A DNA stretch of 64,000 bases from Squalus acanthias (GCA_030390025.1 CM059426.1:207638001-207702000), one strand, 5' to 3'. Numbered from the stretch's first letter, positions 6,576 through 61,202 are shown. Notes: generated from the letters alone by a model not told the origin. Made by a program: numbers and translations.

Positions 6576-7680
6576 TTAACGAATATATGTAAAAAAATAT
6601 TGAATTGTTGGTTTAATTTACTTAAGAGGTCAATGTGGTCTGATCCCTAATCGAGTTGTCTGTCTTTGATGTGAAAAGATTGGCTCCACTTTATAGATTT
6701 TTGTATGATCGGCAGACATTTGTCAGTTGTCTTATCTTAACTGTTGTTAATTGCTCATTAAATATTAATACCTTCTTCCAAACTGGGTGGGGAAAGGCAG
6801 AACAGTGGAGCTTGGGCAGGAGGACAGGCAGTTTTTGCTTTGCAAACACAGTGCGGTAATTCTGACTTTGTGCAATAGCGTTAAACAGGTGGTAACGAAT
6901 CGGCAGATCGTTTTCCATCTCTCCCCATTTTCATTTCCATCGACATCCTAGAAGTGGGGCTCGAACCCACAACCTGCTGATTGTCGAGGTGAGAGTGCCA
7001 TCACCAAGCCAAGATGACGCTTAGGTTTCGTTGCCTGCCTGAGAGATATGAGCGGTGTTATTTTCCTGCTTTGCGTTTGTGTCTTCACGGGCGAGGGTGT
7101 ACATAGGAAATTGTGATACGCAACTTTACGGACACTTAAAATAATGGTTGGAAAATCCGATGTGCATTATCCCTGCTTGGGAAAGTTGGGAAGTTTCACC
7201 TGAGTTGATGCATAAGAAGTAAAAGAAGACATGACAGACTGTTCATAAACTGAACTTTGTTCAGCAGATATTAGATACTCTTATGAAAGGTAATTGACCC
7301 TTTATAGAATTTGTCACAGATAGTATATTTACATATATTGCCCTTTAAGGATCTGACCACTATTGAGCTTCATCATAGAAACTTGCAGCACAGAAGGAGG
7401 TCATTCGGCCCGTCGTGCCTGTGCTGGCTCTTTGAAAGAGCAGTCATGCATTGTCCCCCCCCCATCCCCGCTTTTTGTCCGTAACCCTGTAAGTTCCTCA
7501 TCCTCCAGGACCTGTCCAACTCCCTTTTAAAATTATTCATGGAATCAGCTTCCACCACCTTTTCAGGTAGAGTGTTCCAGATCACGACAACTCACTGAAT
7601 GAAAAGATTTCTCCTCATCTCCCCTCCATAACTTTTGCCAATGATTTTAAATCTATGACCTCTGGTTATTGACTATCTCG

Positions 7681-8093
7681 AGAGGTCGCACAACACCAGG
7701 TTATAGTCCAACAGTTTTATTTTAAATCACAAGCTTTCGGAGTTACAACTCCTTCGTCAGGTGAAGTGAGGAGATACAGAATCGTCAAAGCATATATAGA
7801 TAGAGAACAATGCATGTGTAACTTACAATTGCAGACAACTGAATTCAATCATCCTGACTGTTTATCTGCCGAGGTGTGATAAAGTTGAATTCAGTTGTCT
7901 GCAATTGTAAGTTACACATGCATTGTTCTCTATCTATATATGCTTTGACGATTCTGTATCTCCTCACTTCACCTGACGAAGGAGTTGTAACTCCGAAAGC
8001 TTGTGATTTAAAATAAAACTGTTGGACTATAACCTGGTGTTGTGCGACCTCTCAATTTTGTCCACCCCAGTCCAACACCGGCATCTCCGCATC
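7681..8093. mobile_element. Penelope-like family A fold-back insertion (inverted pLTR plus 3' tail)
   Basis: Arms 7680-7848 and 7885-8053 (169 bp, no mismatch seen), 36-nt spacer, 40-nt unpaired tail, 12-bp TSD TTGACTATCTCG at 7669-7680 and 8094-8105. Confidence 0.88.
7969..8006 (+). ncRNA. Minimal hammerhead ribozyme motif (mirror copy on minus strand 7727-7764)
   Basis: UCAC-CUGACGA-A-GGAGU(UGUA)ACUCC-GAAAGCUU-GUGA. Confidence 0.75.
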
Positions 8094-8999
8094 TTGACTA
8101 TCTCGCCATAGGGAATAGTTTTTCTCTGTCCTCTCTATCAAAACTTCTCATTATCTTGAAAGCCTCTATTAGGTCACCTCTTAACCTTCTCTGTTCCAAG
8201 GAGAACAGTCCTAACTTTTCCAACCTCTCCTCATGAATGAAGTCCCTCATCCCTGGTAACGTCCTGGTAAACCTCCTCTGTACCCTTTCTAAGGCCTTTA
8301 CATCTTTCCTGAGGTAAGTGTGGTGAAAGGATAGTAACCCATTGCTTTTTTAACCACCTTATCAACTTGCCCGGCCATCTTTAAGGATTTGTGTATATGG
8401 ACACCAAAGTCTCTCTGCTCATCTACACTTTTCAAAATCGTGCCATTTATAGTGTAATGTCTTTCCATATTAGTCCTCCCAAAGTGCATCACTTCACACT
8501 TCTCCACATTGAATTCCATCTGCCATGCTTATGCCGAATTAACCATCCTGCCTCTGTCATCCTGAAGTCTACAACTATCCTCATCATTAACTATTCATAT
8601 TGCTGCTTAATTTGTAAACAAAAAGATATTAGTTGCTTCAGTCTGTGACCTTCTGGCCTGTCTGGTAATATCTGCCAATTCAAAGAGAGTTTGACAGTGC
8701 ATCACAATCGGTGTTAATCCATTGCTACACACAAGGCAATTGTTAACCCTTCAGATCTGTGCCCTGCGCAGGCAGGAACACCGCATTTGGATTGTGTTAC
8801 AATTTTGGGAATCGCAGTTACATAAGAACATAAAAATTAGGAGCAGGAGTAGGTCATACGGCCCCTCGAGCCTGCTCCACCATTCAATAAGATCATGGCT
8901 GATCTTCGCCCTTAACTCCACTTTCCTGCCCGATCTCCATATCCCTTGATTCCCCGAGAGTCCAAAAATCTATCTATCTCAACCTTGAATATACTCAAT

Positions 9000-12835: not shown

Positions 12836-15138
12836 TTGTGCGAGGCCCCTTGGGGAGGAGCAATCATAATATGATAGAATTCTTCATTAAGATGGAGAGT
12901 GAAGTAGTTGACTCAGAGACTAGGGTCCTGAATTTAAATAAAGGAAACTACGATGGTATGAGGCACGAGTTGGCTAGGATGGATTGGGGAGCGTTACTTA
13001 AAGGGTTGATGGTGGATAGGCAATGGCAAACATTTAAAGATTGCATGGATGAACTACAAAATTTGTTCATCCCTGTTTGGCATAAAAATAAAACAAAAAA
13101 GGTGACTCAACCGTGGCTAACAAGGGAAATTAGGGATAGCATAAGATCCAAGGAGAGGACATATAAATTGGCCAGAAAAAGCAGCAAACCTGAGGATTGG
13201 GAGCAGTTTAGGATTCAGGAAAGGAGGACAAAGGGATTAATTAAGAGGGGGAAAATAGAGTATGAGAGCAAGCTTTCAGGGAACATAAAAACTGACTGTA
13301 AAAGCTACTATAGATATGTGAAGGGAAAAAGATTGGTGAAGTCAAGCGTAGGTCCCTTGCAGTCAGAATCAGGGGAATTTATAATGGGGAACAAAGAAAT
13401 GGCAGACCAATTAAATATATACTTTGGATCTGTCTTCACAAAGGAGGACACAAATAACCTCCCAGAGATGTCGGGGAACATAGGGTCTAATGAGAGGGAG
13501 GAACTGAATGAAATCAGTATTTGTAGAGAAATGGTGTTAGGGAAATTGACGGGATTGAAGGCCGATAAATCCCCAGGGCCTGATAATCTACATCCTAGGG
13601 TACTTAAGGAAGTGGCCCTAGAAATAGTAGATGCATTGCTGGTCATCTTCCAAAATTCTATAGACTCTGGAACAGTTCCGATGGATTGGAGGGTAGCTAA
13701 TGTAACCCCACTATTTAAAAAAGGTGGTAGAGAGAAAATGGGGAATTACAGACATCGGTAGTGGGGAAAATGCTAGAGTCCATTATAAAAGATATAAAAG
13801 CAGAGCACTTGGAAAACAGTGACAGGATCGGACAAAGTCAACATGGATTTACAAAAGGTAAATCATGCTTGACTAATCTACTGGAATTTTTTGAGGATGT
13901 AACTGGTAGAATAGATAAGGGAGAACCAGTGGATGTGGTGTATTTGGACTTTCAGAAGGCTTTCGATAAGGTCCCGCATAAGAGATTAGCGTGCAAAGTT
14001 AAAGCACACGGGATTGGGGGTAAGGTACTGTCTTGGATAGAAAACTGGTTGGCAGACAGGAAGCAAAGAGTTGGAATAAACGGGTCTTTTTTCCGAGTGG
14101 CAGGTAGTGACTAGTGGGGTACCACAGGGATCGGTGCTAGGACCCCAGTTATTCACAATATATATTAATGATCTAGACGAGGGAACTAGATGTAATATCT
14201 TCAAGTTTGCAGACGACACAAACCTGGGTGGGTGGGTGTGTGTGCTGTGAGGAGGATGCAGAGAAACTCCAGTATGATTTGGACAGGTTGGGTGATTGGG
14301 CAGATGCATGGCAAATGCAGTATAATGTGGATAAATGCGAGGTTATCCACTTTGGTGGCAAAAACAGGAAGACAGATTATTATCTGAATGGCAATAGATT
14401 GGGAAAAGGGGAAGTGCAACGAGACCTGGGTGTCCTTGTGCACCAGTCGCTGAAGGTAAGCATGCAGGTGCAGCAGGCGGTTAAGAAGGCAAATGGTATG
14501 TTGGCTTTCATAGCGAGAGGATTCGAGTACAGGAGCAAGGATGTCTTGCTGCAGTTGTACAGGGCCTTGGTGAGACCACACCTTGAGTATTGTGTGCAGT
14601 TTTGGTCGCCTTATCTGAGGAAGGATGTTCTTGCCATGGAGAGTGCAGCGAAGATTCACCAGACTGATACCTGGGATGGCAGGAATGACGTATGAAGAGA
14701 GATTGGGTCGATTGGGCTTGTATTCGCTAGAGTTTAGAAGACTGAGAGGGGATCTCTTTGAAACTTATAAAATTCTAACAGGACTAGACAGACTAGATGC
14801 AGGAAGGATGCTCCCGATGGTGGGGGAGTCCAGAACCAGGGGTCACAGTCTAAAGATAAGGGGTAAGCCATTTAGGACTGAGATGAGGAGGAATTTCTTC
14901 ACCCAGAGAGTGGTGAACCTGTGGAATTCTCTACCACAGAAGACAGTTGAGTCCAATTCATTAAATATATTCAAGAAGGAGTTCGATATATTTCTTAAGG
15001 CTAAGGGGATCAAGGGATATGGGGAGAAAGCAGGGACAGGGTACTGAATTTGGATGATCAGCCATGATCGCATTGAATGGCGGAGCAGGCTCGAGGAGCC
15101 GAATGGCCTACTCCTGCTATCTTCTATGTTTCTATGTT
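12836..15138 (+). mobile_element. CR1 LINE, 2.3-kb 5'-truncated ORF2 with frameshifts
   Basis: End of endonuclease (PLGRSNHNMIEF), KSPGPDNLHPRVLKE, QHGFTKGKSCLTNL, VYLDFQKAFDKVPH, FADD region and 3' tail, split across four ORFs. Confidence 0.95.
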
Positions 15139-16142
15139 TCTCCTCTCCTCGCCTAGCTCTCCTCTCTTCCCTCTCCTGTCTTCTCCCATTGACTGCTGCG
15201 CTTCCTGCAATACCCTTCAAAATTACTTCATTGGCTGTAAAGCGCTTTGGGACTTCCTGGGGTCATGAAAGGTGCTGTAGAAATGCAAGTCTTCCTTTAT
15301 TTCTATGTGACTCCATGATGTCCCCATTCTGCTTTGTATCTCCGAGGTCCCCTAATTCTTTCTATCAGCTGGTGGCCATTCAGAGGATTGACACTGCGTT
15401 GGCAGGTTCGAGCATAAAATGCCATGGACAACCCCATGGCATATAAATGATGCTTAGAAAGGAAATAACCTCAGTCAGATATTAGCAAATGTCAATGATC
15501 AAATCTTTGGCTTTTCCAAAGGCTGACATCTAACCTTCCTAGCTGGCAGAAGCATCGGAAGGAAGTAATCTAAAATGCAATTATAACAGCACTGAATTGT
15601 CCAAATATAGCCATGCAATTTTCAGTTCTTGTATCCCATGTAACAGCTTGCTGCCTTGAAACCGTCGAGTGATAATGTGAAAGTAGCACAGAGTGGGTTA
15701 CAACATGAGGCTCAGTGAAGGAAATTTCTTTCGCCTTTGATAATACTGCTTTCAATTTCATTGTCCTTATACCATTAGACCCGATGTTGCTTGAGTAAAT
15801 TGGATTCTCGCGCTATGTCCATACTTTCGTATCATCTGGAGGCCCATTGGAGTCTGCGTATCGAAGAACCTCCTGCTTCCAAACGCGGTGTTGTCAACAT
15901 CAGTTAAACTTAGGACTGAGGTGCACAATCAAAAAAGAATGGTATAGATCAAAGGCCCATTTTAACACCTGGAACTGGTGTTTATTTTCCCAGAGTGGTT
16001 TAAACGTAGATTAATCACTAATAGCTTGTCACTCTGAACCAAGCGAGAGGCCTGGGTCGGGCAAATATCAGCAAGTTGGGAAAACATTAGAAGGATTTAT
16101 ACACTGGCCATTACACAAAGGAGAAAGATCTTGCATTCCTAT

Positions 16143-47437: not shown

Positions 47438-48363
47438 TCAGTGTGAGAGAGTCAGCGAGATCAGTGTGAGAGAGTCAGCGAGATCAGTGTGAGAAAGTGT
47501 CAGGGAGATCAGTGTGAGAAAGTGTCAGGGGGGCGAGATCAGTGTGAGAAAGTGTCAGGGAGATCAGTGTGAGAAAGTGTCAGGGAGATCAGTGTGAGAA
47601 AGTGTCAGGGGGGCGAGATCAGTGTGAGAAAGTGTCAGGGGGGCGAGATCAGTGTGAGAAAGTGTCAGGGGGGTGAGATCAGTGAGAGAAAGTGTCAGGG
47701 AGATCAGTGTGAGAAAGTGTCAGGGGGGCGAGATCAGTGCGAGAAAGTGTCAGGGGGGCGAGATCAGTGTGAGAAAGTGTCAGGGGGGCGAGATCAGTGT
47801 GAGAAAGTGTCAGGGGGGCGAGATCAGTGTGAGAAAGTGTCAGGGGGGGCGAGATCAGTGTGAGAAAGTGTCAGGGAGATCAGTGTGAGAAAGTGTCAGG
47901 GGGGCGAGATCAGTGTGAGAAAGTGTCAGGGGGGCGAGATCAGTGTGAGAAAGTGTCAGGGAGCGAGATCAGTGTGAGAAAGTGTCAGGGGGGCGAGATC
48001 AGTGTGAGAAAGTGTCAGGGAGATCAGTGTGAGAAAGTGTCAGGGAGCGAGATCAGTGTGAGAAAGTGTCAGGGAGCGAGATCAGTGTGAGAAAGTGTCA
48101 GGGAGCGAGATCAGTGTGAGAAAGTGTCAGTGAGATCAGTGTGAGAAAGTGTCAGGGGGGCGAGATCAGTGTGAGAAAGTGTCAGGGGGGCGAGATCACT
48201 GTGAGAAAGTGTCAGGGAGATCAGTGTGAGAAAGTGTCAGGGAGCGAGATCAGTGTGAGAAAGTGTCAGGGAGATCAGTGTGAGAAAGTGTCAGCGAGAT
48301 CAGTGTGAGAAAGTGTCAGGGAGCGAGATCAGTGTGAGAAAGTGTCAGCGAGATCAGTGTGAG
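47438..48363 (+). repeat. Minisatellite, about 33 units of 23-31 bp
   Basis: Core GAGATCAGTGTGAGAAAGTGTCAG with variable linkers (G, GGGGGC, GGAGC, C). Confidence 0.96.
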
Positions 48364-49388: not shown

Positions 49389-50176
49389 GCGTGTCCTCTG
49401 ATCTTTGCTTCCAAATGTTCTCAATGTTTATTGAGGTTTCTGACCTGCAATTCTGCTGTTGCTGTCTTATTACTGAGTAATTTCCTTCAATGTTCTGTGT
49501 GATGTGTCATGCGCTCATTGGGAATGATTTAAAACATCACTTGGGAATGATATTTCCTGTAAAAGTGACTTAGTGAAGAACATTGGTAGTTCATGAACCT
49601 GGCGAGTCTCAGCCACTCAGTAGCGTTTCTGATGCTTAGTCTGTATTGATGTTATTTGTCTCTGCCGCTCTCTAGATGTTCTTGATGGCTAGTCCATAAT
49701 TCACTTGTAGGTAGATGGCATAAGGGAGTGCTGTTTGCCATGATTCCGTGATTGCCTTGCTGTTGAAATGTAATTTCATCAAGGCATTTCACACGGACGT
49801 TTTAGGCTGGGATCAATTGCAGCGACAGTTTCATTTCAGTTTTACCACAACTGTCGAATGCCTCGGATAATAAGCTCCTGCCCGTTGAACTTTTCAAAGT
49901 TTGGATTGGGATTCAGCTCCACTGCCCCTCCCTCCCTTCCAAGTTCCAATGGCTCAATCCATTTTGAAATCTGAGGAAGGGAAAATCATTGGCAAAACAT
50001 GAGAGGAAGATTTTTTTTTCAATGGCCTCCTTAAATAAACTAAAGGGTACAATCCTAAAGGGGGTGCATGAACAGAGAGACCTGGGGGTAAATGTGCACA
50101 AATTGTTGAAGGTGGCAGGGCAGGTTGAGAAAGCGGCTAAAAAAGCATACGGGATCCTGGGCTTCATAAATAGAGG

Positions 50177-51577
50177 TCATGATGCGGAGATGCCGGTGTT
50201 GGACTGGGGTGGACAAAATTGAGAGGTCGCACAACACCAGGTTATAGTCCAACAGTTTTATTTGAAATCACAAGCTTTCGGAGCTATCGATTGCCCCTTC
50301 CTCAGGTGAAGTAAATAGATACAGAATCGCCAAAGCATATATAGATAGAGAACAAAGCATGTGTACCTTACAATTGCAGACCACTAAATTAAATCATCCT
50401 GACTATCTGCCGAGGTGTGATAAAGTTAATCAGGTCAGCCAGGAAGGTACCACATCAAAGACATAGCAAGATACAACTGAGACAATGAGGTGTAGTCGCA
50501 GGGGTTCTAACGTGTCAAAAGCTGCCGTCTGTATGTAAAACGAAAAGCTTTAAAATTTTTACTTTTTTACTGGGAAAATTTTTACTTTTTTACTGGGAAT
50601 CACATCTGTGAACAAGCCAACGACGACTCGAGTCCGGATCACGTCATGTATCGTGACATAAACCCAAGATCCCAGTTGAGACCGTCTTCATGAGTGCGGA
50701 ACTTGGCTATCAGTTTCTGCTCGATGATTTTGCGTTGTCGTGTGTTTCTAAGGTTGCCTTGGAGAACGCTTACCCGCAGATCCGAGGCTGAATGTCCTTG
50801 ACTGCTGAAGTGTTCCCCGACTGGGAGGTAACAATCCTGCCTGGCGATTGTTGCACGGTGCTCGTTCATACGTTGTCTCAGTGGCATGGTACATCGGCGA
50901 GACCATGCAGACACTGAGACAACGTATGAACGAGCACCACGCAACAATCGGCAGGCAGGATTGTTACCTCCCAGTCGGGGAACACTTCAGCAGTCAAGGA
51001 CATTCAGCCTCGGATCTGCGGGTAAGCGTTCTCCAAGGCAACCTTAGAAACACACGACAACGCAAAATCATCGAGCAGAAACTGATAGCCAAGTTCCGCA
51101 CTCATGAAGACGGTCTCAACCGGGATCTTGGGTTTATGTCATGATACATGACGTGATCCGGACTTGAGTCGTCGTTGGCTTGTTCACAGATGTGATTCCC
51201 AGTAAAAAAGTAAAAATTTTCCCAGTAAAAAAGTAAAAATTTTAAAGCTTTTCGTTTTACATACAGACAGCAGCTTTTGACACGTTAGAACCCCTGCGAC
51301 TACACCTCATTGTCTCAGTTGTATCTTGCTATGTCTTTGATGTGGTACCTTCCTGGCTGACCTGATTAACTTTATCACACCTCGGCAGATAGTCAGGATG
51401 ATTTAATTTAGTGGTCTGCAATTGTAAGGTACACATGCTTTGTTCTCTATCTATATATGCTTTGGCGATTCTGTATCTATTTACTTCACCTGAGGAAGGG
51501 GCAATCGATAGCTCCGAAAGCTTGTGATTTCAAATAAAACTGTTGGACTATAACCTGGTGTTGTGCGACCTCTCAAT
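50177..51577. mobile_element. Penelope-like family A fold-back insertion with GIY-YIG endonuclease C-terminal half in both arms
   Basis: Arms 50218-50883 and 50912-51577 (666 bp, about 7 mismatches), tail 50177-50217, 14-bp TSD TTCATAAATAGAGG at 50163-50176 and 51578-51591; protein WYIGETMQTLRQRMNEH...PVGEHF...EQKLI...DGLNRD. Confidence 0.92.
51486..51527 (+). ncRNA. Minimal hammerhead ribozyme motif (mirror copy on minus strand 50268-50309)
   Basis: UCAC-CUGAGGA-A-GGGGC(AAUCGAUA)GCUCC-GAAAGCUU-GUGA. Stem II differs in sequence from 7969-8006 but still pairs. Confidence 0.75.
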
Positions 51578-52415
51578 TTCATAAATAGAGGCATAGAGTA
51601 CAAAAGCAAGGAAGTTATGATGAACCTTTATAAAACATTGGTTCGGCCTCAACTGGAGTATTGTGTTCAATTCTGGGCACCGCACTTTTGGAAGGATGTG
51701 AAGGCCTCAGAGAGGGTGCAGAAAAGATTTACGAGAATGATTCCAGGGATGAGGGACTTCAGTTACGTGGATAGAGTGGAGAAGCTGGGGTTGTTCTGCT
51801 TGGAGCAGAGAAGGTTGAGAGGAGATTTGATAGAGGTATTCAAAATCATGAGGGGTCTGGACAGAGTAGATAGAGAGAAACTGTTCCCATTGGCCGAAGG
51901 GCTGAGAACCAGAGGTCACAGATTCAAGGTGACTGGCAGAAGAACCAAAGGCGACATGAGGAAAAACTTTTTTATGCAGCGAGTGGTTAGGATCTGGAAT
52001 GCACTGCCTGAAAGGCTGGTGGAGGCAGATTCAATCGTGGTTTTCATAAAGGAATTGGATAAGTACCTGAAGGAAAAAAATTGCAGGGCTACAGGGAGAG
52101 GGCAGGGAAGTGGGACTAGCTGAAGCGCTGTTGCAGAGAGCTAGCACGGGCTCGACGGGCCGAATGGCCTCCTTCCGTGCTGTAACCATTCTGTGATTCT
52201 ATAAGCAGGGAAATGTTGAGGTATAAATTGGAACTCACCCGATTTTCATCCTATTTAGTTCAGTGAAGATGAAAATTACCCCCTATATTTTGAAAGGGAA
52301 TAGTTCCAGGCAACTGAGATTAGACAAATTTTGACTACAAATAAATTCAAAATTCAGTTTGTCACTCTATTGGACTGATTTTCTGAATGTTTGCTACCAA
52401 CAGAGAGCAATCATT

Positions 52416-58265: not shown

Positions 58266-58964
58266 CCTCTTTGAAATCGTGCCACTATTGTTGACTCGAA
58301 AACCCAAATGACAAATTAACCTCCTTTAACATCTTCCTCTGATTCCCAGTTGACAACAAAATTATTTCAAGTGTTTTATAATAATAAAGAAGTAAGCATT
58401 TGTTCTACAAAAAAAACATTGAGCCGAAGCTCTTGCGTTGGCCACATTTCAATACGCGGGTAAATGTTACGGTTCCTATAGCAACCACATGTTCTGCCGT
58501 AGGAACAGGAGGAGGCCATTCATGAAATCATGGCTGGTCTGCCACCTAACTCCATCCACCTGCCTTGGCTCCATATCTCTTGATGCCCTTGTCTAGCAAA
58601 AGTCTTATTAACCTCAGATTTAAAAATTATTAATTGAGCTAGCATCTACTGAATGGAGCCATATTGCATTGAGGCTGTCAAATCACAACTGCAGTTCGAG
58701 AGTGATCTTTCAATATGGTGCAGCCAGTCAGATGTAATTCTAAAGGGTGCATTTAAGGGGAAGCTAGATGAACACTGAAGGAGAAAGGAATAAAAGGATA
58801 TTCTGATAGGAATAGATGAAGAGGGGTGGGAGGAGGCTCGTGTGGAGCATACATGCCAGCGCAGACCAGTTGGGCCGAATGGCCTGTTTCTGTGTTGTAC
58901 CTTCTACGTAATTCTATGTAAAGTCGCCTGAAAGACCACGGGATCTACAATTCATTGGTTTGAA

Positions 58965-60437
58965 ACATAGAAACATAGAAGATAGGAGCAGGAGTAGGTC
59001 ATTCGGCCCCTCGAGCCTGCTCCGCCATTCAATGAGATCATGGCTGATCATCCAAATTCAGTACCCTGTCCCTGCTTTCTCCCCATATCCCTTGATCCCT
59101 TTAGCCTTAAGAAATATATCCAACTCCTTCTTGAATATATTTAATGAATTGGCCTCAACTGCCTTCTGTGGCAGAGAATTCCACAGGCTCACCACTCTCT
59201 GGGTGAAGAAATTTCTCCTCTTACCCCTTATCCTTAGACTGTGACCCCTGGTTCTGGACTCCCCCGCCATCGGGAACATCCTTCCTGCATCTAGTCTGTC
59301 TAGTCCTGTTAGAATTTTATAAGTTTCAATGAGATCCCCTCTCATTCTTCTAAACTCTAGCGAATATAAGCCTAATCGACCCAATCTCTCCTCATACGTC
59401 ATTCCTGCCATCCCAGCTATCAGTCTGGTGAATCTTCGCTGCACTCTCTCCATGGCAAGAACATCCTTCGTCAGATAAGGTGACCAAAACTGCACACAAT
59501 ACTCAAGGTGTGGTCTCACCAAGGCCCTGTACAACTGCAGCAAGATATCCTTGCTCCTGTACTCGAATCCTCTCGCTATGAAGGCCAACATACCATTTGC
59601 CTTCTTAACCGCCTGCTGCACCTGCATGCTTACCTTCAGCGACTGGTGCACAAGGACACCCAGGTCTCGTTGCACTTCCCCTTTTCCCAATCTATTGCCG
59701 TTCAGATAATAATCTGTCTTCCTGGTTTTTCCACCAAAGTAGATAACCTTGCATTTATCCACATTATACTGCATCTGCCATGCATCTGCCCAATCACCCA
59801 ACCTGTCCAAATCATTCTGGAGTTTCTCTGAATCCTCCTCACAGCACGCATGCCCACCCAGCTTTGTGTCATCTGCAAACTTGGAGATATTACATCTAGT
59901 TCCCTCGTTTAGATCATTTATATATATTGTGAATAGCTGGGGTCCTAGCACCGATCCCTGCGGTACCTCACTAGTCACTGCCTGCCTCTCGGAAAAAGAC
60001 CCGTTTATTCCAACTCTTTGATTCCTGTCTGCCAACCAGTTCTCTATCCAAGTCAGTACCTTACCCCCAATCCCGTGTGCTTTAACTTTGCACGCTAATC
60101 TCTTATGCGGGACCTTATCGAAAGCCTTCTGAAAGTCCAAATACACCACATCCACTGGTTCTCCCTTATCTATTCTACCAGTTACATCCTCAAAAAATTC
60201 CAGTAGATTAGTCAAGCATGATTTACCTTTTGTAAATCCATGTTGACTTTGTCCGATCCTGTCACTGTTTTCCAAGTGCTCAGCTATTACATCCTTTATA
60301 ATGGACTCTAGCATTTTCCCCACTACCGATGTCAGGCTTACCGGTCTATAATTCCCCGTTTTCTCTCTACCACCCTTTTTTAAATAGTGGGGTTACATTC
60401 GCTACCCTCCAATCCATGGGAACTGATCCAGAGTCTA
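58965..60437 (-). mobile_element. CR1 LINE, young subfamily, uninterrupted RT-to-C-terminus frame
   Basis: ORF 59058-60323(-), 421 aa, with [20 protein letters not shown] and FADD motifs; 5'-truncated, no endonuclease. Confidence 0.95.
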
Positions 60438-61202
60438 TGATTGGAAAGTTCTGAATAGCAAGGCAATCGATAGGAGCACTTTACAAATAAATGTAAAAAC
60501 ATGAATTTGTGCAGAGAGTTCAAAAGAAATCTATTCGTGGGAAACAACTGATCTTTTGAACCCAGAATAAATTTGTCAGGCGAGGAAATGAGATTCTTGT
60601 CCGAACAGCAGGCATCCCAACTAAACATGTATTTTACTAGAACATCCTGGAATCTCCCTAGAATTGAGCTTTGCCACAGAATGTAACAGGACCCGGGTAA
60701 AATCAGGTCAGAAGTAAAGTTGGTTAATGGTTTCGAAGATAATACTGACATTAAAACCGGTCGATTTTTTTTTAAGACATTCCAGGCACATTGAGATATT
60801 TCTCACACTCGGGTGCCTTTGATGTATTCAAATCTCGGTAAGTGCGCCATGAGGCATTGTAGCATATCGAGAAGAAAGATTAAACAATACCTGTAGTACT
60901 TCAAACACTTTGACGTGCTACAGATTCTATACTTGCAGTGCTGGAATGAGAATCTATAACACTTGCTTCCAGCAGCTAACATTGAGGAGAAGTGTATTTA
61001 ACTTAACTGAACCGCCGCCTAATATAAATGTTAAAGAAGGCGACATCTGTAAACCCAAGAGCTGTTTCCCGGTTTTCCTTTGTTCCTTGCATTTTATCCT
61101 TGAACTGTCCATCGGATGCCCAATCCTCGCTCCAGTGACTTTGCGAAGGGACACAAGTGGCTGTGTGCTACTTGCCCAATTCATGATGTCATCGGAGGTT
61201 AT

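Follow-up and report, generated by a model that had tools for sequence, protein, structure and literature searches.

The 64,000-nucleotide (nt) stretch of DNA from Squalus acanthias analysed here (GCA_030390025.1 CM059426.1:207638001-207702000; hereafter the window) contains a palindromic insertion of a Penelope-like retroelement, whose two inverted arms meet beside the YIG codons of the element's GIY-YIG endonuclease. Comparison with sister copies in the genome assembly (G000) revealed that arm junctions of this family recur at a short inverted repeat native to those codons, that the loop of this repeat can lie on either arm, and that the two arms of an insertion nearly always share a template. 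We consider it fairly probable that such insertions are twin-primed: a protein dimer would nick both target strands, likely one RNA would be copied twice, and the two complementary DNAs (cDNAs) would likely be joined via microhomology. An earlier note on the window had explained the palindrome by fold-back of the nascent cDNA on the same repeat.

A native repeat at the YIG codons is a hotspot for joining

The arms of the window insert (50216-50883 and 50912-51579) form an inverted repeat of 668 nt each with 99% complementarity. At the centre lie GCATGGT (50884-50890), an 11-nt loop and ACCATGC (50902-50908), over the codons A-W-Y-I-G-E-T-M. The whole unit (50884-50908, plus strand) reads in the sense of the right, tail-less arm, and its stem of 7 base pairs (bp) is foldable (-6.0 kcal/mol, z -2.1). 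The repeat had been taken for a natural part of the element, and it is indeed present in all 29 other loci compared, some of which differ in the loop or at a single stem base. Of the GIY-YIG motif, the codons WYIGET placed over the centre represent the YIG half, and the insert contains no GIY half.

Palindrome centres are distributed non-randomly and often coincide with native inverted repeats, a check that the note had proposed. Tight centres, found by their symmetric pattern, numbered 53 at the YIG site versus 23 and 19 in two control windows, the second of which has a CpG in its anchor and undercounts. The 51 listed of the 53 YIG centres were analysed, and 43 carry no inserted letters; L132 and L135 were dropped for a mismatch in the far anchor. 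Inserted letters excluded 8 of the 51 YIG centres and 9 of the 23 control centres from the microhomology counts, among them L203, which is the clean join with point changes. These statistics are limited to two conserved coding windows, since junction calls in short divergent copies overstate inserted letters. The 7-nt repeat was used in 15 of the 43 clean YIG joins, compared with 1.9% of possible joins (p 1e-15). Microhomology of at least 2 nt was found in 26 of the 43 (13.5% expected) and in 10 of 14 joins from the control window (12% expected). By eye, 4 of the 19 centres in the second control window, probably representing three events, have a 5-nt native repeat in common. The majority of centres nevertheless use 0 to 4 nt or carry inserted letters.

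Nineteen loci show the same junction pattern at the YIG repeat: 17 have the clean 7-nt join, one lacks one base and the window lacks three. They lie in different targets and span several subfamilies, up to 67 differences apart; their target-site duplications (TSDs), for the 17 loci in which both ends were located, measure 8-16 bp. Because the 19 loci differ in target and subfamily, the YIG join must have recurred. Descent of all 19 from one palindromic master is excluded by the several subfamilies together with the varying side of the tail. At another centre, that of L206 (G000:C1:179752000-179752052), a short filler of tail sequence suggests a template jump back to the start site.

Loop, tail and loop length

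The layout of the family was counted in a random sample of 90 loci (L031-L120), taken from the first 100 tailed ends listed for contig C1, all near the start of the contig. An inverted copy follows the tailed end in at least 67 of the 90, a lower bound, because L095, whose inverted copy lies beyond a 150-nt gap, was scored as truncated and because two long copies overrun their loci. The tail, counted from a point 5 nt inside the arm, is mostly 41-46 nt long. Where the far end is visible, in 59 inverted copies, all 59 are tail-less there, with 0-10 native letters past a fixed point, and 50 of the 59 tail-less arms stop within 6 nt of one point. Tight palindromes picked by their centre gave the same picture: among the 63 that show both ends, 62 carry a single tail, one carries two and none lacks a tail. 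Head-to-head layout is thus the norm in this family, as has already been described for Penelope-like elements.

If one target-primed cDNA folded on the 7-bp repeat and copied itself into a second arm, the repeat would be expected to be native and a true hotspot, and the arms to share a template, all of which is the case. The tailed arm would also be the deeper one, a geometry found in 18 of 48 YIG-window palindromes. The same process predicts, however, a loop on the tailed arm only, and in the window and in 27 of the 48 the loop lies on the tail-less arm. Fold-back calls for a loop continuous with the tailed strand and a second arm contained in the first, an arrangement that the window lacks. 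Fold-back alone fails there because the loop has the orientation of the right arm, which lacks the tail; a snapped-back cDNA copies only what it holds, and therefore cannot add the extra 41-43 nt of the left arm. The note's proposal that the second arm was primed in this way alone accordingly did not hold. Joining at the foldable native stem, a further expectation, was seen in 15 of 43 sister joins, and the window join is offset from it, with 1 nt of microhomology. Of the 19 loci with the YIG join, 11 carry the tail on the loop-less arm, contradicting simple fold-back, seven carry it on the loop arm, and one could be assigned to neither class. Fold-back of a single cDNA also leaves the fixed tail-less end without a reason, and we regard it as very improbable indeed.

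Arm depths point the same way. Among the 48 YIG palindromes, the tail-less arm exceeds the tailed arm in depth in 27, equals it in 3 and falls short of it in 18; the corresponding counts among 20 control palindromes are 7, 6 and 7. In the random sample, at a 5-nt margin, the tail-less arm is deeper in 35, the arms are equal in 19 and the tailed arm is deeper in 13 (n=67), with differences of up to 2.8 kb. A deeper tail-less arm holds sequence absent from the tailed arm and therefore needed its own reverse transcription.

A second line of evidence comes from the shortest loops. Of the 57 clean joins, 13 combine microhomology with a loop of less than 3 nt: 8 of 43 at YIG (null 3.5%, p 1e-4) and 5 of 14 in the control (null 2.3%, p 1e-5). 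The zero-loop joins include self-complementary 2- and 4-mers. Such joins cannot be formed by one strand, and two strands can anneal in this way. They bear on a hybrid scheme in which both nicks prime, one cDNA snaps back on the native stem and copies itself, and its sense strand then pairs with the short second cDNA at the other nick. The snap-back proposed in the note would on this view be real, though no more than half of the process. This scheme covers arm identity, the coupled arm lengths described below and the 15 of 43 joins at the foldable 7-bp stem, and it permits a loop on either arm. It cannot, however, yield the 13 joins with loops below 3 nt, it is strained by arms that lie hundreds to thousands of bases apart and are joined with 0-3 nt of microhomology, and it requires an extra strand exchange. 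We hold it to be a doubtful contender, though a serious one.

Both arms nearly always come from one template

Arm-to-arm agreement was compared in 62 of 76 loci, 14 having been dropped for unseen ends or unequal arms. Over 166 variable columns, the two arms disagree in 107 of 9,324 cells, while about 4,087 disagreements would be expected if arms were drawn independently. The distance between arms is no greater than that to the nearest other copy in 53 of the 62, and the two distances are correlated (Spearman rho 0.64). Both arms are therefore nearly always copied from one template. One locus, L191, with 15 shared non-CpG variants, looks two-templated. The sole two-tailed palindrome among the 63, L215 (350-1520), which is located at the same host site as the window insert, has arms that differ at five shared non-CpG variants, as if from two RNAs.

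The arms are also coupled in length. Depths agree within 25 nt in 39 of 67 palindromes (permutation mean 14.5), and among long palindromes they agree within 40 nt in 7 of 22 (permutation mean 1.6, p 0.0004). The deeper arm ends at the predicted RNA start in 23 of 67, and short sister palindromes in the random sample pile up near that start. Of 157 arm ends, 37 fall at family positions 88-97, about 30 nt past a TATA-like box and on an initiator-like motif that precedes a predicted hammerhead. This pile-up probably represents run-off at the RNA 5' end.

The target is symmetric around 12 bp

Among 114 insertion sites with a 10-16-nt duplication (L031-L226), the TSD is 12 nt long in 49, 13 nt in 35 and 14 nt in 19, and the longer values take in letters common to the element ends. 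The 49 distinct 12-bp sites show a two-fold symmetric preference, TGNC-N12-GNCA, with G at -3 in 39, C at +15 in 39, T at -4 in 33 and A at +16 in 33. The flank matrix correlates with its own reverse complement at 0.90.

In the window, a 14-nt direct repeat flanks the insert (50163-50176 and 51578-51591), and it had been described as a 14-bp TSD in a CR1. The repeat is there, but the true TSD is most likely 12 bp, with plus-strand copies at 50163-50174 and 51578-51589. We prefer this value because the extra GG, which would make the left copy 14 bp if counted, also belongs to the element tail sequence, because insertions at the same site show the 12-bp core (L053, L072 and L085 forward; L035 and L046 reverse), and because 12 bp is the mode (49 of 114). 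The first two T of the right copy also match the element end. The window's target score of 16.9 was left unused as evidence, the same host site being within the matrix training set.

A twin-primed account and its difficulties

In L1 twin priming, a single RNA is primed from both nicks in the target, and joining of the two cDNAs through microhomology produces an inversion. The segments of such L1 insertions are different, largely non-overlapping parts of the RNA, whereas here both arms contain the same 3' end. On our twin-primed account, a protein dimer would cut both strands of the symmetric target, 12 nt apart. Priming from one nick would begin where the tail ends and from the other about 40 nt inside that point, on what is likely one RNA, and both cDNAs would stop near the same point, at an RNA end, a break or a structure. 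Annealing of their antisense 3' ends would follow, preferentially at native inverted repeats such as the one at YIG, and gap filling would yield the 12-bp duplication. If true, this double-copy mechanism would account for the tail, the inverted pseudo-long terminal repeat (pLTR), the TSD and the palindromic centre together. The family counts predict that the target is cut symmetrically with a 12-nt stagger, that each RNA yields two cDNAs and that native repeats serve as joining sites. That Penelope-like elements generally integrate by double copying of one RNA, from two fixed starts about 40 nt apart, is a wider claim that we see as nearly balanced, leaning slightly against it.

The nearest biochemical parallel is PAc, a Poseidon element of Anolis carolinensis, for which both target strands were cut and extended, the protein was predicted to be a dimer, and reverse transcription started at two adjacent sites that bound the tail (PMC11167929, where the later integration steps are left unvalidated). 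The single tail per insertion accords with the two neighbouring start sites for reverse transcriptase (RT) and with the in vitro extension of both strands by the predicted dimer (PMC11167929). PAc resembles the shark element in its C-terminal GIY-YIG domain, and the hammerhead in its pLTR has a predicted counterpart here. It differs in belonging to the Penelope/Poseidon clade and in its loose ATT or AT-rich preference, as opposed to the CX4CxxC linker and TGNC-N12-GNCA target found here. The formation of inverted arms is not addressed in the main text of PMC11167929.

The structure itself is known. Complex insertions of endonuclease-containing (EN+) Penelope-like elements have been described with an inverted 5'-truncated copy, a one-sided tail of 30-40 bp and a TSD (PMC8557442; Pen2a of Adineta vaga, PMC3846280), and in PMC8557442 the origin of tandem and inverted Penelope-like structures is called undefined. 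The shark insertions are like the EN+ insertions in those sources in being head-to-head, with one tail, a TSD, a palindromic inverted junction and a TATA box plus initiator in the pLTR, and in having a tail that reads into the start of the open reading frame (ORF). They are unlike the examples given there in that the join was counted against a null, the loop was found on either arm, and the target is symmetric around 12 bp.

Two further routes have been put forward in print for other Penelope-like elements: self-priming on an antisense RNA template (PMC3846280) and endonuclease-mediated resolution (PMC8557442). A rival built on these ideas would start from such self-priming or from a free hairpin intermediate, and the element's endonuclease would trim the tail of one arm during integration. 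A free intermediate could drop its tail from either arm, and the 50 of 59 tail-less ends within 6 nt of one point would fit such trimming. The tail boundary, however, is unlike the target motif: its scores of -5 to -17 are exceeded by 25-95% of background positions, so that scoring with the target matrix does not support endonuclease cutting there. Zero-loop joins and the two-tailed, two-template L215 would be left unexplained, and the in vitro data link the tail to RT start sites (PMC11167929). We judge this rival highly unlikely.

Several points weigh against the twin-primed account. The mechanism is inferred from end products, and no intermediate was observed. The 15 clean 7-nt joins, with their 11-nt loop, suit intramolecular snap-back equally well. 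Double copying of one RNA requires strand displacement. The anole protein in vitro used both start sites on both strands, without difference (PMC11167929), and the pairing of one tailed with one tail-less arm in nearly every insertion is therefore unexplained by start sites alone. Arm identity could stem from gene conversion after insertion. Our samples favour young copies that match the patterns exactly, the 90 loci all stem from the beginning of a single contig, and one natural copy, L105, serves as the reference for every position. Offset joins near the stem number about 4 of 51 by eye, against about 3 expected, and the window join falls in no enriched class.

A literature search that covered few subscription papers, and not the older mechanistic studies of Drosophila Penelope, turned up no published account of twin priming or of a join hotspot for Penelope-like elements, which is a weak sign of novelty. 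The window locus is ordinary. What is added here is the counted YIG hotspot, the test of loop against tail among loci with the same join, the joins with no room for a loop and the count showing a single template. These family statistics bear on the origin of inverted structures in Penelope-like elements, and the thousands of copies in the genome are a ready test set.

The join in the window

The join of both arms lies at 50883, where the usual template offers a single nt of exact microhomology; 3 nt would be reached only with a rare allele. The note had observed that 3 nt (TCT) are missing from one arm. The loss is real; it is not a feature of the family, the window being the sole join 3 nt short among the 19 matches. 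The window strand can form a 10-bp stem with a 3-nt bulge (-6.5 kcal/mol, z -2.3), and this bulged stem requires an upstream GTG allele, which occurred in none of 100 copies (the first 100 of 4,908); with the usual allele, the three extra pairs include G-T. A native 10-bp bulged stem as a general cause of the missing TCT was rejected, with GTG in 0 of 57 and 0 of 100 unbiased copies; GTG had seemed common only in a list ranked by likeness to the window. Chances are about even that the window join used the 7-bp stem: it may have been stem-guided, with 3 nt trimmed or lost, or it may be a 1-nt join that merely adjoins the stem.

Anatomy of the window insert

The note had described two 666-bp arms with about seven mainly CpG-type mismatches and an unpaired tail on one side. 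The arm length becomes 668 bp when two further nt, which also match the target duplication, are included, and the other two statements agree with our counts. There are seven mismatches: six are transitions at CpG (50526, 50630, 50653, 50674, 50855 and 50856) and the sole non-CpG one, at 50844, is a G/C transversion. CpG sites make up 60 of the 668 arm positions and hold six of the seven mismatches. The tail is on the left side only (50175/50177-50217, annotated as 50175-50217, minus strand). It is native sequence beyond the pLTR and reaches the ORF start in the tandem copy L040, which reads ...HRHLRIMTTIDT... where the tail passes into the ORF.

An assembly artefact from chimeric fold-back reads is an unlikely source of the palindrome, and we give it a negligible probability. 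No contig bridging the centre or the whole insert was found among the short public contigs listed, a result from which no conclusion was drawn. Against an artefact stand the seven arm differences, six of them at CpG, the unmirrored flanks, the TSD and the one-sided tail, together with the restoration of the host reading frame when the insert is removed and the same layout in 67 of 90 sister copies.

The left arm (50216-50883, minus strand) is a tailed, 5'-truncated, inverted copy of the element 3' end, and it includes the C-terminal part of the GIY-YIG endonuclease (50639-50883, minus; ..LRQRMNEH..YMT*). The right arm (50883-51577, plus) is a tail-less, 5'-truncated sense copy that goes about 29 nt deeper than the left. 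Its GIY-YIG remnant, from the YIG half onward (50884-51144, plus), matches Pfam PF01541 with E=0.0054, below the curated cut-off, and a CpG change at 51142 created a stop codon in it. Further along the plus strand lie a TATA-like box (51452-51458) and an initiator-like TTACTTC (51481-51487), both mirrored in the left arm. We read both as putative promoter elements from their sequence, with a predicted RNA start near 51482. A minimal type-I hammerhead ribozyme is predicted at 51486-51527 (plus), mirrored at 50268-50309 (minus). Its candidate parts, compared by eye with PMC4209133, are stem I TCAC/GTGA, the core CTGAGGA..GAAA and a palindromic AGCT helix III. An Rfam search gave no hammerhead match for the pLTR, and Rfam microRNA matches were set aside as hairpin-driven and under the gathering scores. 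A 23-bp tandem duplication in the 3' untranslated region of the element (window 50552-50597 and 51196-51241) is present in both arms and in the reference copy.

Classification of the element

The family is very large: the exact 41-mer of the tailed end has 8,492 matches in the genome assembly, and a 36-mer at YIG has 11,159. A sister copy, L105, has an open frame of 858 amino acids with RT, a CX4CxxC linker and GIY-YIG, and it ends in the C-terminus seen in the window. Another, L015, matches RVT_1 with E 5e-9, above the cut-off. Together with the layout of pLTR and tail, these two copies support the note's identification of the element as Penelope-like. Upstream of the GIY motif in L105 is the linker CHGKLCKTC, and by eye GIY and YIG enclose two cysteines (VVYLIHCRKEC-TAAW-YIG), with NEH and EHF further along. 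PMC8557442 assigns to EN+ elements a CCHH motif whose two cysteines lie between GIY and YIG, and it describes a CX2-5CxxC linker between RT and EN as common to Neptune and Nematis and absent in Penelope/Poseidon. By these motif definitions alone, the element belongs with the canonical EN+ Penelope-like elements and is of the Neptune or Nematis type. The window insert, as judged from its sequence, is a dead, 5'-truncated, head-to-head copy of a very abundant, probably Neptune-type Penelope-like retroelement.

Other copies of the family deserve mention. A second, older copy in the window (7668-8104) is a short head-to-head insertion with its tail on the right, an 11-12-bp duplication and arms without mismatch over about 170 nt. 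On C1, L165 and L166 lie 64 kb apart with the same element end and flank, and probably represent a segmental duplicate.

Arm divergence as a clock

Dating by pairs of long terminal repeats (LTRs) relies on two copies made from one template at insertion that diverge afterwards. The arms studied here are alike in coming from one template, and the more they diverge, the more distant the nearest other copy tends to be (Spearman 0.64, 62 loci). Unlike LTR pairs, they are inverted, short and CpG-dominated (6 of 7 mismatches in the window), L191 and L215 look two-templated, and conversion between arms is possible. Divergence of the window arms is 1.05% at all sites (95% interval 0.42-2.16%) and 0.16% at non-CpG sites (0.00-0.92%). 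The epaulette-shark mutation rate is given as 7e-10 per site per generation, with an interval of 1.4-14.1e-10, in PMC10587355. If that rate is assumed to apply to the host, the ages would be about 7.5 million generations from all sites and about 1.2 million from non-CpG sites, both uncertain more than tenfold. The note's premise that the arms were identical at insertion thus mostly holds, but seven mismatches, six of them CpG, are too imprecise to date one locus. Moreover, the left arm differs from an arm of L121 at three positions and from its own partner at seven, so the pair adds little over copy-to-copy distance in a young subfamily. If they are pooled and CpG-corrected, however, the arm pairs of thousands of insertions can provide an internal clock.

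The host LINE and neighbouring sequence

The insert lies in a long interspersed nuclear element (LINE) remnant that we take to be CR1-like from its motifs; this much of the CR1 assignment in the note can be kept. The upstream part spans 49968-50174 (plus) and the downstream part 51590-52123 (plus), and the two are in frame when the insert and one TSD copy are taken out (..ILGFINR|GIEYKSKE..). A Pfam search of the host LINE remnants gave no match. There are many related copies of this LINE within the window. An empty counterpart of the insertion site could not be identified in a relative, the host LINE being repetitive.

The site within the host LINE (window 50155-50182) is a strong insertion hotspot, taken by 14 of the 90 tailed copies of the random sample, in both orientations. 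On a crude count, sites like this target occur once in 90,034 bp of distal flank. Further recurrent host sites are shared by L081, L095, L097, L098 and L107, by L032, L033 and L037, and by L044, L068 and L100. Elsewhere in the window, two LINE copies that are 93% identical lie in opposite orientation about 44 kb apart (13660-15140 and 58962-60438), and a minisatellite with 23-30-bp units occupies 47438-48363.

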